Source of the DNA: Candidatus Izemoplasmatales bacterium
GTDB taxonomy: Bacteria > Bacillota_I > Bacilli_A > Izemoplasmatales > Hujiaoplasmataceae
Length of the DNA stretch: 64,000 nt
Assembly (NCBI GenBank): GCA_050177605.1
Contig: JBFXGX010000002.1
Coordinates: forward strand, 1 to 64,000
Reading direction: 5' to 3'
Positions within the stretch are counted from its first letter, which is position 1. Every line of letters starts with the position of its first letter. Below, in pieces: positions 39,001 through 51,000 of the stretch. A program made the position numbers.

Positions 39001-42000
39001 ATAGATGGTGAAGGAAAACCGCTGATTATATTAAATGGAATTATGATGTCAACAAAATCTTGGCAACCATTTATTCCTTCCTTAAAAGAGTATTTTAAAG
39101 TGATTCGACTTGATTTTTTAGATCAAGGCCAATCGGATAAACTTGTTGGCGCGACTTACACGCAAACATTACAAGTTGATTTATTAGCCGCTTTTATTTC
39201 CTTTTTGAATTTAGATAAAGTCAATCTTTGTGGTATTTCATATGGTGGAGAAGTGGCACTAGGATTTGCGACGAAATATCCTCAGATGGTGAATCGGCTT
39301 ATGTTATTTAATACAACCGCATATACAAGCCCTTGGCTTCAAGATATCGGTCGTGGATGGATTGCTGCAGGGAAAACAAGAGATGGCAAACATTATTATC
39401 AAACAACCATTCCTGTCATCTACTCACCAACTTTTTATGAACAAAAATTAGATTGGATGAAAAAAAGAGAACAAGTTCTGATTCCTGTTTTTTCAAATCC
39501 AGTCTTCCTAGATCAAATGGAAAGACTTACCTTGAGTGCAGAGAGTTATGATGTTCGCGACCACCTAGATTTAGTGAAAGCTCCGACAATGATTGTATCT
39601 GCAGAACAAGATTATTTAACTCCAATGGAAAATCAAGAATATTTGCATCAACATATTGAGAATTCTCATCTCGTAAAAATTCCTTTTGCTGGACATGCAT
39701 CTATGTATGAGAAACCACTCTTATTTACCTCATTTGTCATTGGCTTTTTTGGTGTAAAAGACACTATTTATCCTATATAATAAAGAAAGGTATTTTTTGA
39801 TATGGAAAAAAAGTATGTAACAATCGATAATCATGAACAAGTTGCGTATGTTGAAAAAGGGAAGGGCTCAAAGACATTACTCTTAATCCATGGCAATTTC
39901 TCTTCTAGTATTTATTATCAACCTTTGTTTGAACGTCTACCTGAAGATGTACATGCGATTGCGATGGATTTAAGAGGCTATGGTGATACCTCTTATAAGA
40001 ATCGTGTATTATCTTTAAAAGACTTTGCTAAGGATGTTAAATTATTCATGGACAAAATGAATATTGAGAAAGCTTTTGTCTGTGGTTGGTCTTTAGGAGG
40101 TGGTGTTGCGATGGAACTTGCAGCACATTATCCTGAAAGAGTAGAGAAACTAATCCTACTAAATTCAACAACGCATAAAGGTTATCCTGTGTTTAAAAAA
40201 GATGAAACAGGGAAGATGATTGTTGGTTCTGTTTATAAAGATGCGGATGAAATGGCAAATGATCCTGTTCAAGTAAAACCATTGCTAGATGCTTTAAATG
40301 GAAAAAACTTTGCTTTTGTTAAATATATCTTTGATGTAACAATTTATACAGTTGGAAAACCAACGGATGAGCAAACGATTCTATTTATTGGCGAATCCTT
40401 AAAACAAAGAAACTTGGCGGATGCCGATTTTGCACTCGCTAGCCAAAATATGGGTGATACGCCTTCTTTCTATAAAGATGGTGAAAGAACGATTCATCAT
40501 ATTACGATGCCTGTTCTTCACATTTGGGGGGATAAAGACATCACTGTGCCTGAAATGATGATTCAAGATAATTTGAATGCGATGAAACAAAATTCAACCT
40601 ATATCAAATTTGAAAACTGTGGTCATAGTCCTTTGATTGATAAACCGGACGAATTGACAAAAGCAATCTTAGATTTTATTCAATAAGGTCTCCTTTTCAT
40701 ACTTAGCCTAACATACAACTATTTTTGTCAAGAGGCTAAAATGGCTAAAAATAGGCTGTTTTAGCCTCTGCAACAAAAATATTAAAAAAATATTAAAAAA
40801 ATTGAGCGAAAGTTGTTGACAAAGAGATTTGACTATTATATAATGATGTCGTAAATAGCAAAACTAGGGAAACCTAGTGACGCAAAGCTATAGGGCCTTC
40901 GCAAGATGGTAGCCAGTTGCCGTTATCTTATTTAAGATGAGGGCATTTTTTATTTCATAGGGTTATTTTATCCATTAGTGAGTAAAGAATGCACAAATCT
41001 TCAAAGGGTAGTGGCTTTTTTTTATAGCCAACCCGGACCTAAGAGGGAGGGAATGCACTTTGGTATGAGTACAAAAGTTAAATTAGCCGAACGAGTCGTA
41101 TATGCTTCCAGAGCTACGAGAATAGCTAAGGCTAGTCGCTTAGGAATCATCGTAAGTGCAGTACTAACTTTTCTGATCTTCGCAATATCATATTATGGAG
41201 AGGTCGTCGGAAATTTCACATTCAGCGTTGATAGATTCGCAGAAGAAGCTGGAATAACAATTTACGACAATTCAATTACAAAGAATTACACATCAAGACT
41301 TGCCTCAGCCAAAGTAGATAATGCAGACGGAATGACTGGATATTGTGGTACAGAATACACTACATTCCCAGTTGGACATGAGTTGTGTGTCCCAACCGAT
41401 GACGTTGTTACAAGCGTGGATGGATCAAACAATGGAACATCATATCTTGCCTACACATTTTATGTAGAGAACGCAGGAGATGCTACTGTTGATCTTACCG
41501 CAACCATTAAAATCATCTCCGCAACGAAGGGCGCAGATCAAGCCATTAGGGTCAGAGTGATTATCGATGGGGTAGGAACCACTTACGCAGCAAGACAAAC
41601 GGATAAAGGTGTTGCTCCGGGGGAACTAGAACCGCTTACAGAAGCATTTTACGCTCTCACTACCGTTATGTATCAAGAGTATTACATGTTCAGACCAGGC
41701 GATGTAAAAAAAATAACCGTTCTGCTCTGGTATGAAGGTGAAGACGCTGATCACAATCAAGACATTGTTGGCGGCGGTGTAAAACTAGAGATGGACATTT
41801 CCGTTTCCTACGTTTATGAGCTCGAATAGATCTTACTAGGAAAACAAAGAAACACAAGACAAAAAAACAAAAAAAAATAAAAATCCAAAAGGGGAAAAAA
41901 TTATGAAAACATTAAGAAACAAAGTTATTCTTTCAGCAGTCGTATTAGCTTTCGCATTAATCGCAACAATCGGTTCAACTTATGCATGGTTCACAGTATC

Positions 42001-48000: not shown

Positions 48001-51000
48001 GTCAATACTGCTTTTGAGGTAGACAATCAATCCTCATTAAAATCGCAATTGCGAATTCAAATAACGTATACGAAAGTAGTCAACAACGCCGGAACAATCA
48101 CTTCGTCAACGCAAATTTATCATGATGATTCAACGGATCATTTATCGGTTGTGATGAATGAGAACTTTGTTCAAAGCGGAGACTATTTCTACTTTGGTGG
48201 CGATACTTATGATATCCTTACTTATTCTGGTGTCATTTCATTAATTACCTCCATTGTTTATGATGGTAACTTTGCGGGTATTGACTATGAAAATATGCCG
48301 ATATCCATTTCCATTACGATACAAGTCAAACAAGCGGACAATGTCACATGGTCTGATCTTGCAGGATACGATTTTTCGACAGGATTACCTGCATAAAAAA
48401 GAGGTGAAAAAGTGCTAAAGAAAGTACTTAAAAAAATATTACAAGCCCTGCCTTTTATCTTCTTTGCATTAGCCTTTTTCCTTATTGTCCAAGTGCTTGT
48501 TGCAATTAAGAATGATCGAACACCAGATTTCTTTGGTTATTCAGTATTTCTTGTTGTATCCCCTTCAATGGAAGATACAATTATGACTGGGGATATTATT
48601 TTTGTTGATACTTCCATCACAGATTATGAAGTTGGCGACATCATTTCATTTCACCGTCCTGATGATGAGTCAATCATTATTACACACCGCATCGTTTCCA
48701 TCAATGAACTTGATGGTAATCTGTTAATTACGACACAGGGTGATAATAATTTCGAATCGTTATCTTGGGAAAAAGACTTTACGGTAGACCATATTATTGG
48801 GGTTTATCAAGGGAAGTCAACCTTCTTAGGGAATATCTATTCTTTTATCTACACAGGTGGCGTTAGTTTAATTTATGGTGTCGTGATTTTAGCGTTTTTA
48901 ACGATTGGTGTTACTGAAGCTATTTCGATTGTGAAGACTTTGTCAAAAGCAAAAGTGGAAGAAGAAGAGAAAAAGAAACAAGAACTCATTGAAATCGAAA
49001 AAGAACGACTTCGAAAAGAATTTGAGGAAGAAAATAAACAATAAAATAAACGCACACTTTTTTGGGAGTGTGCGTCTTTTTTTACTTTATTTCGATTGCT
49101 TTTCTAACCAAATCGCTTTCAGTTTATCATAGGTTGCTTGAGGGATATCTGGATTTCCTTTGGAATAACACGGAAAGACTTGGTCTCCCGCCACAAGCGG
49201 ATCTGTACAAGCAAAGTTATATCGATATTTTTCTCTTTCTTCTTTATTTCTAAAATTAGGAATGAACTGTTCACTACCCCCCTGTAAGATACTTTGATAC
49301 GCAAAATATCCAGGTAAAAACATATCGAGTGCTTCATACACATCAATGGTATCCGCAAGAGGATTTCCTTTTATTTTTTCGATAAAGTGATGCATCGTAT
49401 AAAAATCACTACCGCCATGACCATAGCCCTTCGCTAAATGATGTTTAAATGTTTTTGGAAGATAGGTCTGAACATTGTTTTGAAATTCATTTTCAACTTC
49501 ATCGAAATTTGTATAGATTCTTTCTATATCACCTTTCAGGGCATCTTCTCTTGCGCTTTCCATTCTTCCCTTGGTTCCATAAAGCGAAAACCAAATCGAG
49601 TTCTTCGCTAAATCTCCATGGATACTTTTCAAAATCGCTCCGTTTTCTAGCGTGATCATCTCAATTCCTGCAGTTCCACCAAGTTTTCCCATTTCTTCAG
49701 CACGAGAAGTTCTAGGTAATTCGAATCCAATGACTTTTGTTGGTCTTAGTCCGGTAATATGCAAAATAGGTCCAATCGAATGCGTTGCATAATAAGTAGC
49801 GTACATATGATTTCGCCAATGCTCTTTATCTCCATAAGTAATGTCAGCCCAAATTGGGTGACAATTATGAATATACTCACTTTCAGCGTACTCTAGATTC
49901 CCAAGTTTTCCTTCGCGATATAATTTTTTCATTTCCATCGGAGATGGCATATAACAATAGTTTTCAGCGTAGGCATAGATTTTATCTGATTTTTCAACAG
50001 CTTCACAAAGCATTACAGCCTCCGCGAGCGTTTGAATAGGCAGTACCTCACTAAGAACATGCTTTCCTGCTTCAAGTGCTTGTATTGCAAATTTAGCGTG
50101 TTCTGTAGCGTAATTCGCAAGAACAACCGCATCCATATCGTATTTTAAGAATTCTTCATAATTGGTGAAGTATTGAATAGAGTCATCCTTTGTCTCTTCT
50201 TTCAGCTTCATAAGACCTTCTTCCCAAAAATCACAAATTGCGACGAGTATTGCATTGGATACCGTGCTGGCATATTCAATCATCGTTCTTCCTCTTCCGA
50301 TTCCAATGACACCAATTTTTACTTTTTTCATCATGTTTTACCCCCTTACGAATATACAGCGTCATTATATCAAAAAAGAATAAAAAAGCAATCATTAGTT
50401 TTTTAAGAAATCATGATTTATCTATGGTATAATATTTTAGTGTTGGAGGGTTGATGATGGACTGGAGAAAAAACTATACAAAAGCAATTACATTTACCTA
50501 TGATGATGGCGTCATTTACGATCGAAAATTCGTCGAAATACTCAACCGATATGGACTGAGATGTACGTTTAATATTAACACGGGATTCTCTTCATTTGAT
50601 GATCCTTTTTTTGATGAAGGAATTCTTGTTTCTCATCTTGATGTTGAAGAAATGGTATCCTTATTTCAGGGCCATGAAGTAAGTGTTCATACCTTTACTC
50701 ATCCTGATTTAACGACATTAAATGAAAGTGAAATTCTTTATCAAATAAGGCAAGATCAAGAACGAATTAAGCAATATTTTGAAGTTGAAGCTTGTGGGAT
50801 GGCCTACCCATTTGGAACGTATAACGAAAGTGTAAAAAAGGTTGTAAGAGAGAGTGGATTATCCTATGCAAGAACGATTCATTCTACCTATGATTTTCTA
50901 TTTCCGAAGGATCTATATGAATTTCATCCTACGATTCATCACAATGACCCAAGATTATTTGAAATCATTGATGAATTCTTGAATGTAAAGTCATCAGCCC

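Follow-up and report, generated by a model that had tools for sequence, protein, structure and literature searches.

A riboswitch-led operon encoding putative SipW-processed fibre subunits in a wall-less Izemoplasmatales bacterium

Eight ORFs, g215 to g222 (g00215-g00222), together with a riboswitch leader and a closing terminator, span ~40.8-49.1 kb of a 64,000-nucleotide stretch from a Candidatus Izemoplasmatales bacterium (contig JBFXGX010000002.1, positions 1 to 64,000; the window; Table 1). A preliminary description of this DNA had proposed an eight-gene operon, and the ORFs were found as it gave them. The start of g215 is likelier to be 41053 or 41065 than the GTG at 40978, and ATG 43100 is the likelier start of g217. 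Neither a PBP transpeptidase nor FtsW/RodA was found in the 89%-complete genome, in agreement with the earlier view of a host that lacks a cell wall.

Table 1. Positions of operon and sister-operon features in the window
Feature	Position	Strand	Details
Sister leader	15534..15669	+	promoter 15534-15562, aptamer 15565-15642, terminator 15636-15669
Sister operon	15759..27811	+	g199, g200, two degenerate-GGDEF + EAL proteins
Promoter, sigma-70-type	40816..40844	+	TTGACA-17-TATAAT; 12/12 matches
GEMM-I (RF01051) cyclic-dinucleotide aptamer	40847..40924	+	64.5 bits; A at Vc2-G20 position (alignment column 11)
Intrinsic terminator	40918..40951	+	4 + 7 bp stem with G/G mismatch, then U6 run
g215, N-in single-pass membrane protein	41065..41829	+	TM at residues 24-52; alternative start 41053
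g216, secreted protein	41903..42841	+	N-terminal SipW-type signal ending ...STYA/WF (slash, predicted cut); beta-sandwich
Strong hairpin and U7, 3' of g216	42868..42935	+	hairpin 42868-42923, U7 42929-42935; z -7.4
g217, SipW-type (ER/archaeal-type) signal peptidase I	43061..43825	+	TIGR02228, 74.8 bits
g218, McrB-like AAA+ GTPase homologue, NxD type	43881..45551	+	McrB 6hz4, E 0.0019
g219, McrC-like partner, DUF2357-type N-domain	45562..47148	+	120-residue C-terminal helix; cytoplasmic
g220, small secreted subunit	47165..47791	+	distant TasA/camelysin (PF12389) family member
g221, small secreted subunit, g220 paralogue	47800..48396	+	hhalign vs g220: 99.2%, E 6e-20
g222, second SipW-type signal peptidase	48412..49044	+	TIGR02228, 70.1 bits; charged cytoplasmic tail
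Two-way terminator, closes operon	49050..49075		

Two RF01051 aptamers had been reported, and both were recovered at the same coordinates and with the same scores (65.4 bits at 15565-15642 and 64.5 bits at 40847-40924; gathering score 35), as was the perfect promoter preceding each. Promoter-like sites are not elevated in total (32 found, compared with 34.8 +/- 6.4 in shuffles), and the operon promoter is the sole 12-of-12 match among the 32. TTGACA is present in each of the 12 family-f1 leaders examined; ten of them have TATAAT as the -10 element and two have TATACT. No terminator had previously been found downstream of either aptamer, but each leader carries an intrinsic one. The 5' arm of the operon's terminator overlaps the 3' tail of the aptamer, and in the copy of the sister leader a double change, G-C to A-U, preserves the stem. 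The sister leader also has an additional copy of the 3' arm at 15702-15719. Such overlap occurs in 65 of 67 distinct leaders and at 6 of 670 random positions; in G20-type leaders, the aptamer's own P3 3' strand is the terminator 5' arm. Because the two elements share this strand, the switch is probably ON when its ligand is bound.

The riboswitch lies within 700 nucleotides upstream of g215 in all 34 loci with enough room. Contigs from four RNA libraries (two studies) extend over the leader and g215 into the start of g216, and a single 777-nucleotide contig crosses the terminator, spanning 40867-41642. These contigs are mostly 90-95% alike to the operon and are therefore assigned to relatives. 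They give a weak hint of transcription, as DNA can contaminate such libraries.

Gene order is preserved across 80 species-level loci from Izemoplasmatales and Acholeplasma-like bacteria, and a genome from another family (G106) has the identical order and the riboswitch. Upstream of the g218/g219 pair, 49 of 50 loci have a SipW gene; downstream of it, 54 of 56 have one, and in the other two a SipW gene overlaps g219. Some relatives that retain all other operon genes lack g220 and g221. The hairpin and U7 tract after g216 represent a possible partial terminator, which is local to the host genome in that a comparable hairpin was found in just 2 of 47 relatives. Given this element and the 220-nucleotide gap between g216 and g217, the six downstream genes may be only partly controlled by the riboswitch in the host.

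No Pfam or NCBIfam match of note was obtained for the host's g215, g216, g220 and g221, as reported before for the secreted and membrane proteins. The same had been said of all the unknown genes, but relatives of g219 carry the Pfam domain DUF2357. g216, found in one to three copies in relatives, is likely the main secreted subunit. Its AF2 model (pLDDT 83.6) surpasses the earlier one, and the TasA fibre 8aur, previously the best Foldseek match in the PDB, again ranks first, still weakly (E 0.018, TM 0.25/0.32). 8aur also heads the VIA matches (Z 5.5, rmsd 4.6, 152 aligned), where a GH123 beta-sandwich ties with it (Z 5.4). The structural matches of g216 are led by subunits of donor-strand fibres, namely TasA, bundling pili, threads, Tafi and chaperone-usher pilins. 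A profile of the g216 family found no match among PDB sequences, and its commonest NCBIfam match, TIGR04088 (cognate_SipW), is seen in just 7 of 118 members (best E 0.0037). Homology links the outer domain of g215 to the C-terminal domain of g216 (hhalign 95.6%, E 1e-8, 128 columns), and g215 is a candidate anchor or nucleator. Its Atlas record begins at residue 5, and the cluster nearest to it bears the name "SipW-cognate class signal peptide family protein".

The small subunits g220 and g221 can be linked by sequence to the TasA/camelysin family. PF12389 is matched by 7 of 39 members of the g220 family (best E 6e-5), and g220 aligns with a PF12389 set in hhalign (81.8%, E 1e-5). BLASTP connects g221 (E 5e-16) to an operon-equivalent protein of G106, which passes PF12389 with 30.5 bits (cut-off 22.5). 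The host's own g220 and g221 fall below this cut-off, and in the bridging proteins the alignment is mostly confined to the signal and first strands. The likeness to TasA proposed earlier has a basis in sequence for g220 and g221, whereas g216 resembles TasA weakly, in the fold of its model.

The motif [ST][YF][AG]W[FL], located 8-45 residues past the start codon, occurs in 4 of the 2258 ORF segments of at least 80 amino acids in the genome, namely g199, g216, g220 and g221. These were among five proteins listed previously, of which the fifth fails the spacing rule. The signal and first-strand region is common to g216, g220 and g221 (hhalign 96% and 94%), and proteins that pass PF12389 have similar N-termini. 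Immediately after the predicted cut in the g216 family, W29 and F30 are invariant, and T31, V32 and S33 are present in at least 90%, which fits a donor strand.

The designation of g217 and g222 as SipW-type peptidases is borne out by TIGR02228 (cut-off 51.85), which both pass, and by their catalytic residues, which are invariant (Ser70 and His117 of g217 in 54 of 54; Ser52 and His92 of g222 in 68 of 68). Neither reaches the cut-off of 190 for NF046067, the Bacillus SipW equivalog (71.5 and 81.3 bits). g217 has TM segments at both termini and a charged cytoplasmic tail.

The g218/g219 pair is the best-conserved portion of the operon, with 65-90% identity between genera of family f1. g218, described earlier as a membrane McrB-like ATPase, is more precisely a homologue of McrB GTPases of the NxD type; it combines an N-terminal TM segment (residues 52-89) with a coiled coil and a linker of low complexity. 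Its Walker A, Walker B and N397-K-D399-D400 motifs are conserved in 68 of 68 sequences. PF09823 (DUF2357) is matched by 43 of 67 members of the g219 family. Outside coiled-coil matches, the best structural match of the g219 AF2 model (pLDDT 80.5) is McrC (6hz4_M, Z 7.4, rmsd 4.4, 147 aligned; Foldseek probability 0.66). g219 showed neither a nuclease domain nor a conserved acidic/lysine motif. The suggestion that the pair could be an inserted McrBC-like module is rejected: the pair is conserved, and in 74 of 80 loci the McrB-like gene immediately precedes g219, five of the six misses being at contig edges.

The pair fits the CoCoPALM systems already named in print (Bell et al. 2024, eLife, PMC11090510). 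The four features published for these systems are all present, namely a McrB GTPase of the NxD type, its fusion to an N-terminal TM segment and coiled coil, an McrC homologue with coiled coils, and associated signal-peptidase-family genes. The CoCoPALM account occupies one paragraph and two supplement rows, with a fuller description deferred. It likens the peptidase to the streptococcal pilin-assembly protein SipA and does not give named subunits, a riboswitch or a host group. McrBC of Escherichia coli similarly combines an AAA+ GTPase (Walker A/B, Nx(x)D signature) with a DUF2357 partner. However, g218/g219 lack a DNA-binding domain and a PD-(D/E)xK nuclease, g218 has NxD where E. coli McrB has NxxD, and g218 is membrane-tethered and lies within a secretion operon.

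The operon also resembles known fibre systems. In Bacillus subtilis tapA-sipW-tasA, a dedicated SipW-type peptidase accompanies secreted beta-sandwich subunits, the mature N-terminus of TasA is the donor strand, and an accessory protein with a similar N-terminal strand nucleates or anchors the fibre (PMC9674648, PMC9245690). According to PMC9674648, mature TasA begins at residue 28, residues 28-38 form the donor strand, and the TapA N-terminus is similar to that strand. The operon described here belongs to a cell without a wall and differs further in having two peptidases, two unrelated subunit families, a membrane-anchored paralogue instead of wall-bound TapA, a riboswitch in place of SinR, and an McrBC-like GTPase pair, which is absent from TasA systems. 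In Clostridium perfringens sipW-bsaABCRSD, SipW is described as necessary for secretion and polymerization of TasA-like BsaA, and a terminator after the main subunit gene allows read-through to accessory genes (PMC7395162), reminiscent of the hairpin after g216. BsaA oligomers are reported to be membrane-anchored, and efficient secretion to need an ATP-driven machine, the type IV pilus genes (PMC11580942). Unlike here, that machine resembles a type IV pilus and is encoded outside the operon, the cell is walled, and temperature and a two-component system regulate expression. The best structural matches of g216 also include archaeal donor-strand filaments (bundling pili AbpA, Sulfolobus threads, Tafi and cannulae; 7ueg Z 5.2, 7pnb 5.1, 9p0a 4.5, 9h8b 4.4), with scores too low to demonstrate kinship. 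Their subunits are processed by Sec or signal peptidase I, as proposed here; no NTPase or riboswitch is reported for them in the text examined, and "ATPase" does not occur in PMC9245690.

We read the locus, with a probability of roughly 0.6, as a second-messenger-induced surface-fibre operon. From the observed RNA motif, terminators, protein families, conserved motifs and synteny we infer how it might work, from ligand and cleavage site to polymerization and the role of the GTPase. The strong promoter would transcribe the aptamer, whose last bases double as the terminator 5' arm. Binding of a cyclic dinucleotide would hold the shared strand in the aptamer, the terminator would not form, and RNA polymerase would enter the genes. 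Sec would export the subunits, with g216 as the main one, g215 as base or nucleator, and g220 and g221 as small TasA/camelysin-family subunits, and the N-terminal hydrophobic segment would retain them. SipW might then cleave past the small residue of [ST][YF][AG], directly before W, and the freed N-terminal strand could enter a neighbouring subunit, by analogy with the donor-strand exchange of TasA. The g218/g219 ring would sit at the cytoplasmic face, where, as a guess, it organizes or powers assembly, perhaps through coiled-coil contacts to the charged tails of g217/g222 or to the conserved cytoplasmic tail of g215. To our knowledge, TasA, BsaA and their archaeal relatives polymerize without a dedicated NTPase, and the fibre model therefore leaves the best-conserved genes of the operon unexplained.

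The ligand may differ from the c-di-GMP proposed originally, although the RF01051 aptamer itself stands. Position G20, a ligand contact, is A in 12 of 12 family-f1 aptamers of a first set and, in a second set of 65 full matches, A in 24, G in 39 and C in 2 (G and C in other groups). Judged by sequence, A at this contact is a signature of 3'3'-cGAMP or dual specificity, so c-di-GMP is not secure. A tentative alternative thus keeps the same architecture but takes 3'3'-cGAMP, alone or with c-di-GMP, as the natural ligand of a GEMM-Ib-type switch. In PMC6140456, A is described as replacing G20 in cGAMP riboswitches, G20A gives Vc2 affinities of 53 nM for c-di-GMP and 120 nM for cGAMP, and some natural A20 aptamers are bispecific; in a Geobacter aptamer, A20G switches selectivity from cGAMP to c-di-GMP (PMC6456294). 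However, the former source also indicates that A20 alone does not confer selectivity. The signature position lacks the Hypr serine in all 17 GGDEF domains of the genome (12 read GHxxGD, and one has Asn there), and no SMODS/CD-NTase match was found in the 89%-complete genome. The sister operon, whose leader has an aptamer of the same type, holds g199 and g200, as in the preliminary description; g199 has the signal motif and, in addition, a g221-like C-terminus, and the 2413-aa surface protein g200 has an ordinary Sec signal. They are followed by two GGDEF-EAL proteins, each with a strong EAL domain and a degenerate GGDEF motif, and this pair of EAL proteins fits c-di-GMP feedback. The aptamer fold is that of Vibrio cholerae Vc2 and Geobacter pgcA, and the Geobacter GEMM-Ib switch is described as a terminator-based ON switch over surface structures (PMC6456294), as proposed here. 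What sets the present case apart from those systems is that the lineage with A20 is wall-less and Bacillota-like and that the host genome has many canonical GGDEF enzymes but no recognizable cGAMP synthase; Acholeplasma-like loci, in addition, carry the aptamers in tandem.

It is unlikely that the secreted proteins do not polymerize and are instead SipW-processed adhesins or camelysin-like proteins, membrane-held or released, of an adhesion or feeding module. Such a role would suit the Pfam title of PF12389, "Camelysin metallo-endopeptidase", the generic beta-sandwich of g216, which also occurs in carbohydrate-binding N-domains of GH123 enzymes, and the coupling of a motif protein to g200 in the sister operon. 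Yet several paralogous small subunits with a membrane-anchored paralogue form a typical major/minor/anchor set, TasA and BsaA, which are characterized relatives, form fibres, and the residues conserved after the g216 cut fit a donor strand. We regard as very improbable an anti-phage or anti-mobile-element system, akin to McrBC or CoCoNuT, comprising g218/g219 or the entire operon with the secreted proteins as accessories. g218 does match the PADLOC candidate PDC-M26A (E 4e-41) and belongs to the NxD branch, which Bell et al. handle among Type IV restriction relatives (PMC11090510), and the genome holds a second, longer paralogous pair. However, g219 has no PADLOC match and lacks the nuclease features noted above, a membrane anchor replaces the McrB DNA-binding N-domain in g218, and a lifestyle messenger would control the operon. 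Moreover, defence islands are seldom so conserved in sequence and gene order as this pair.

The surface-fibre reading thus retains from the earlier proposal of a c-di-GMP-switched, SipW-processed TasA-type fibre system its riboswitch-led operon, two SipW-type peptidases and signal motif, with the identity of the ligand insecure. To that proposal we add the overlapping terminators with their probable ON logic, A20, the PF12389 links, g215 as a membrane-anchored paralogue of g216, and synteny in 80 loci. g218/g219 emerges as an integral, CoCoPALM-type pair of what may be a surface-fibre operon in wall-less Izemoplasmatales.

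We read the eight genes g215 to g222 (g00215 to g00222), which follow the aptamer at 40.8 kb, as a cyclic-dinucleotide-ON, SipW-dependent operon for fibres of the TasA kind, joined to a McrBC-like GTPase homologue of CoCoPALM type. The fibre operon outlined in the preliminary description is real and largely as given there, except that terminators do follow the aptamers and that the McrBC-like pair is not an insert.

An Rfam scan of the whole window yields exactly two matches, both to the c-di-GMP-I family (RF01051, GEMM-I), and these head two operons as previously noted, with scores above the gathering score of the family. 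Each aptamer has two hairpins and a GNRA tetraloop, here GAAA, and starts two to three bases after a perfect promoter. Promoter-like sites are not above chance in the region (32, against 34.8 +/- 6.4 expected), and the site of the 40.8-kb leader is the single one to match at all 12 positions. Eight plus-strand ORFs follow this aptamer, up to a two-way terminator.

Features of the two riboswitch-led operons (positions in the window)
Feature	Position	Strand	Description
Promoter TTGACA-17-TATAAT, sister leader	15534-15562	+	read from leader sequence
Sister operon	15534-27811	+	promoter-aptamer-terminator, g199, 2413-aa protein, two EAL proteins
RF01051 aptamer, sister leader	15565-15642	+	65.4 bits, gathering score 35
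Intrinsic terminator, sister leader	15636-15662	+	same hairpin as in 40.8-kb leader, then U7
Promoter TTGACA-17-TATAAT, 40.8-kb leader	40816-40844	+	12/12 matches
RF01051 aptamer, 40.8-kb leader	40847-40924	+	64.5 bits, gathering score 35
Intrinsic terminator, 40.8-kb leader	40918-40945	+	4 + 7 bp stem, one G/G mismatch, then U6
Promoter-like site in g216-g217 gap	43027-43055		10 of 12
Two-way terminator closing g215-g222 operon	49050-49075	.	after the eighth ORF

A third RF01051 aptamer occurs elsewhere in the same genome (G000:C1:193-270, minus strand, locus L137; 63.1 bits); it faces the end of its contig, and its cargo is therefore not assembled. In one related genome the aptamer of the operon scores best as the c-di-GMP-I-GGC variant RF03167 (L024:5510-5585; 62.2 bits against 59).

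No terminator had been reported downstream of either aptamer, yet both aptamers have one, whose 5' arm begins within the aptamer, at its conserved 3' tail. One pair of the terminator stem differs on both sides in the sister leader, where A-U is replaced by G-C. Defined as a hairpin of -8 kcal/mol or lower that has its start in the final 20 nt of the aptamer and runs up to at least four U residues, an aptamer-overlapping terminator is present in 65 of 67 distinct leaders from the window and its relatives, compared with 6 of 670 positions drawn at random from these loci. The 5' arm in Acholeplasma-like leaders is the 3' strand of the second aptamer hairpin, and aptamer and terminator structures are clearly mutually exclusive there. 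The terminator that overlaps the 3' end of the aptamer provides an expression platform coupling ligand to genes. As the simplest reading we infer an ON switch, in which bound ligand would hold the strand in the aptamer and transcription would continue. Because no P1 (closing) helix could be defined by eye in aptamers of the window's own family (f1), this logic is based on the terminator overlap and not on a modelled P1. The sister leader also has a second copy of the terminator 3' arm and U-run at 15702-15719, 50 nt past the first; the terminator 5' arm could base-pair with one or the other, which would make a double or alternative terminator.

The two SipW-type peptidases attributed to the operon are borne out by TIGR02228 (SipW-type/ER-archaeal-type signal peptidase I; cut-off 51.85 bits), for which g217 and g222 score 74.8 and 70.1 bits. 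Both fall below the 190-bit cut-off of the Bacillus SipW equivalog NF046067 (71.5 and 81.3 bits), and by these profiles they are of the same kind as Bacillus SipW but not its orthologues. Each protein has an N-terminal and a C-terminal membrane segment, then a charged tail. Their catalytic Ser and His, the pair expected of TIGR02228-type peptidases, are invariant among relatives (54/54 for g217, 68/68 for g222).

Among the genome's 2258 ORF segments, only 4 have the motif [ST][YF][AG]W[FL] closing the N-terminal hydrophobic segment, and these belong to the two operons led by riboswitches: g216, g220, g221 and g199, the first gene of the sister operon. The small residues at -3 and -1 of the motif fit a signal-peptidase-I cut directly before the W, and such a predicted cut would make the conserved W-F-T-V-S the new N terminus. 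Mature TasA starts at residue 28, and residues 28-38 form its donor strand (PMC9674648).

Profile comparisons show full-length homology between g220 and g221 (99.2%, E 6e-20), and g216 has in common with them the signal and first-strand region alone (96% and 94%). The outer domain of g215 and the C-terminal domain of g216 are homologues (95.6%, E 1e-8, 128 columns), which makes g215 a membrane-anchored paralogue of g216, the likely main subunit. Also conserved in g215 are a basic cytoplasmic tail and, directly behind its membrane segment, G-N-F-T-F. This protein may itself be cut and, by analogy with the role of TapA for TasA, may be a base or nucleator.

Kinship of g220 and g221 with TasA is suggested by sequence evidence. 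At E <= 0.1, PF12389 (TasA/camelysin) matches 7 of 39 g220-family members and 1 of 39 g221-family members, neither window protein being among them. Comparison with four PF12389 proteins by hhalign gives 81.8% for the g220 family and 64.7% for the g221 family; this TasA-side alignment has just four rows because PF12389 matches occur in only 6 of 201 sampled genomes of the phylum, and the window's own genome has none at E <= 1. In G106, a genome of another family, this operon encodes beyond its second peptidase a g221-like protein of 189 aa (E 5e-16 against g221), which passes the PF12389 cut-off. Against PDB sequences, the g221-family profile gave a chance lipase match only.

The likeness of g216 to TasA is weak and lies in its predicted fold. 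No Pfam family matches this protein, and hhalign against the PF12389 set gives 46%, in the signal region only. Its model (pLDDT 83.6) places the TasA fibre 8aur first in both fold searches (Foldseek E 0.018, TM 0.25-0.32; Z 5.5), a Z tied with that of an unrelated glycosidase domain; the list of matches is rich in donor-strand fibre subunits, at Z values below 8 that may mean only a common arrangement. The nearest named Atlas cluster is PF12389 (0.86), which serves as a lead only. The g216 family is large (731 cluster representatives at E <= 1e-10) and lies outside every Pfam model; 14 remote relatives, scanned from a search of 1.84 billion proteins, belong to no Pfam family, and the 10 that were looked up have no protein names and so give no taxonomy. 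Among PDB sequences the family profile has 0 matches at E <= 10. TIGR04088, a model of the SipW-cognate signal peptide, matches 7 of 118 g216-family members at E <= 0.1 (best 0.0037), not including g216 of the window, and 0 of 40 g215-family members; among NCBIfam models, no relevant one matched the g215 family. Complex prediction for three mature g216 chains (residues 29-312), run without controls, returned a score of 0.00 and no verdict, and nothing is drawn from it.

The two genes that follow the first peptidase resemble McrB and McrC. In g218 a membrane segment (residues 52-89) and a short coiled coil are joined by a low-complexity linker to an AAA+ domain, whose best solved relative is E. 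coli McrB (E 0.0019); the coiled coil is placed by weak Pfam matches at residues 88-123 and by reading of the sequence. Walker A, Walker B and N397-K-D399-D400 are invariant in 68 of 68 relatives, and a one-residue gap relative to the four-residue NTAD signature of E. coli McrB makes g218 an NxD type. DUF2357, the McrC N-terminal domain, is found in 43 of 67 relatives of g219 and not in g219 itself. For the g219 model (pLDDT 80.5), Z against McrC is 7.4 and 7.3, over the N-domain only (chain residues 34-183); the model ends in a single 120-residue helix (residues 408-527). Its other fold matches are mostly coiled-coil proteins and further helical folds, and the McrC ones alone were judged meaningful; PDB sequences gave nothing meaningful for g219.

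McrBC Type IV restriction combines a PD-(D/E)xK nuclease with a DNA-binding domain, and this combination is not seen here. The N terminus of g218 is a membrane anchor where McrBC has its DNA-binding domain; no nuclease domain is seen in g219, and the invariant columns of its family alignment include no acidic/lysine triad. PADLOC has no match for g219 or its paralogue. A second, longer pair paralogous to g218 and g219, with a McrB-like protein of 770-927 aa and a McrC-like partner, occurs at G000:C57:1-3929 (L028) and, in a relative, at L027:6293-10641, and is probably a defence-type version; the L027 copy matches PADLOC PDC-M26A at E 1e-47, with a weak restriction-enzyme match. Two other roles, in DNA uptake and, from the FtsB-like segment of g218, in cell division, were set aside, neither having a supporting gene.

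The preliminary description had allowed that the pair might be an inserted McrBC-like module, which is at odds with its conservation. The g219 profile picks out 80 species-level loci. In 74 of these g219 is immediately preceded by the McrB-like gene, and of the six exceptions five sit at the edge of a contig. SipW is encoded upstream in 49 of 50 loci with room and downstream in 54 of 56, overlapping g219 in the other two, and a riboswitch occurs within 700 nt of g215 in all 34 loci with room. The order in 16 loci of two families is riboswitch (present in 14), g215, one to three copies of g216, SipW, McrB-like, McrC-like, optional g220/g221 and SipW. Identities within the window's own family are 65-90% for g218 and 42-71% for g219, compared with 25-56% for the subunits, and by this measure the NTPase pair is the best-conserved part of the operon. 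A g219 homologue (E <= 1e-20) was detected in 45 of 299 scored genomes of the phylum sample, with several families of 1.2-2.2 Mb genomes well represented (f4, 21/24; f7, 6/6; f17, 7/9); none was detected in the sampled members of the smallest-genome families f5 (0/49) and f6 (0/68), nor in those of f2 (0/10). Given this conserved gene order and distribution, g218 and g219 belong integrally to the operon rather than forming a stray defence module.

Two loci deviate in other ways. L100 (7004-9605), the sole locus of its kind with full flanks, has a g219 homologue that lacks the first 100 residues and has no McrB-like, SipW or g216 gene upstream; it may be a rearranged or decaying copy. In L019 an extra 361-aa ORF (10771-11856, minus strand), possibly an inserted mobile gene, lies between g216 and the first peptidase, in a gap of ~1.6 kb.

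Bell et al. 2024 (eLife, PMC11090510) report a large clade in which NxD GTPases carry a fused FtsB-like TM and coiled-coil domain, name it CoCoPALM and postpone its description, with two supplement rows; their HHpred E-value for the FtsB likeness is 1.2. Like this clade, g218 is a McrB-like GTPase homologue with the NxD signature, and of the fusion it has the TM segment, with the coiled coil as placed by the weak Pfam matches. Also shared are the coiled coil of g219, represented by its terminal helix, and the SipW genes that flank the pair. By description, the pair matches the published account of CoCoPALM. The NTPase-peptidase association is already in print in that paper (PMC11090510); the riboswitch link, the subunit families and the wall-less setting are not apparent in the publication titles listed. 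Among the matches listed for CoCoPALM, only Bell et al. 2024 and its preprint use the term in this sense, and the others are unrelated uses.

In this genome a very stable hairpin with U7 follows g216 (z -7.4), with a 220-nt gap before g217, and the downstream genes may depend on read-through or an internal promoter. As a feature of the general design this hairpin was rejected, a comparable one being present in just 2 of 47 relatives. The gap itself (42842-43060), of ~190-260 nt, recurs in most f1 loci, where the operon is otherwise tightly packed. RNA-library contigs from four libraries of two studies represent the leader, g215 and the beginning of g216, with DNA carry-over possible; they come mostly from relatives, 90-95% alike, and one bridges the terminator. 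Past about 46100, these four runs give little or no cover, which says nothing on expression.

The sister operon resembles an adhesin operon into which negative feedback on the messenger is built. Its g199 has a g221-like C-terminal motif in addition to the signal motif, the 2413-aa protein is rich in Thr, Ser and Tyr with an ordinary Sec signal, and the last two proteins have strong EAL and degenerate GGDEF domains. Acholeplasma-like relatives have two or three tandem aptamers before the g215-g222 type of operon and more tandem pairs ahead of the next operon, whose products are g199-like or 620-aa motif proteins (L110:2125-2549; L114:1127-1356; L118:1666-1871 and 9510-9698).

Model position 11 of RF01051, where the consensus is G, is A in both window aptamers, and by our own reading it corresponds to G20 of Vibrio Vc2, beside the G-C pair closing the first hairpin. 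On that reading, the window aptamers lack the G that reads the first guanine of c-di-GMP at this position and have the A20 by which GEMM-Ib is defined (PMC6140456). In a first set of leaders, A was found at this column in 12 of 12 from f1 and G in 7 of 7 from the sister family; 65 full aptamer matches in 80 further loci have A (24), G (39) or C (2).

Replacement of G20 by A is a feature of cGAMP riboswitches (PMC6140456), and the A of the window and f1 aptamers accordingly argues for cGAMP, or dual sensing, in place of c-di-GMP alone. The same paper gives about equal affinities of Vc2 G20A for c-di-GMP (53 nM) and cGAMP (120 nM), and describes bispecificity in some natural A20 aptamers; the A20G change in a Geobacter aptamer flips selectivity from cGAMP to c-di-GMP (PMC6456294). 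However, none of the 17 GGDEF domains in the genome, which is 89% complete, has the Hypr serine (12 have the canonical Asp and one has Asn), and no SMODS-type cyclase (CD-NTase) is matched in it. The sister operon, with the same aptamer type, also ends in EAL proteins of the kind expected for negative feedback on c-di-GMP. We favour c-di-GMP over cGAMP or dual sensing by roughly two to one. One GGDEF domain, at G000:C11:23700-24134 (L037), has an intact motif with Asn where canonical cyclases have Asp and Hypr enzymes have Ser.

By the source names of its close homologues, the window belongs to the Izemoplasmatales, a free-living and wall-less group related to the mycoplasmas. Neither a PBP transpeptidase nor FtsW/RodA was found in the 89%-complete genome; a Mur-ligase-fold gene is present in single copy, and its family also matches archaeal control genomes.

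In the current view, TasA-type fibres need no energy source for their assembly, which takes place outside the cell. In this case, across dozens of species, the best-conserved gene of a TasA/SipW-type operon is a restriction-descended GTPase homologue, which suggests an unrecognized energy-dependent step or a new use of McrBC motors. A bolder proposal, to which we give only about one chance in four, is a new class of surface-filament machine, in which a membrane-recruited McrB ring and a nuclease-less McrC would drive or gate SipW-dependent, TasA-like donor-strand assembly, and perhaps fibre retraction or the uptake of fibre-bound material, under the direct control of a cyclic-dinucleotide riboswitch. 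If true, this machine could be the main adhesion or substrate-capture organelle in wall-less, DNA-foraging bacteria. The locus gives the named but undescribed CoCoPALM class a concrete parts list, a regulator and cultured hosts for testing, candidates being Hujiaoplasma nucleasis, Mycoplasmatota strains WC30 and zrk2, and Izemoplasma sp. B36. The A20/G20 split between sister lineages that share the operon offers a natural test for the evolution of ligand specificity in riboswitches. The locus also indicates that cyclic-dinucleotide riboswitches serve in surface control in free-living bacteria that lack a wall and encode 17 GGDEF domains in 1.9 Mb.
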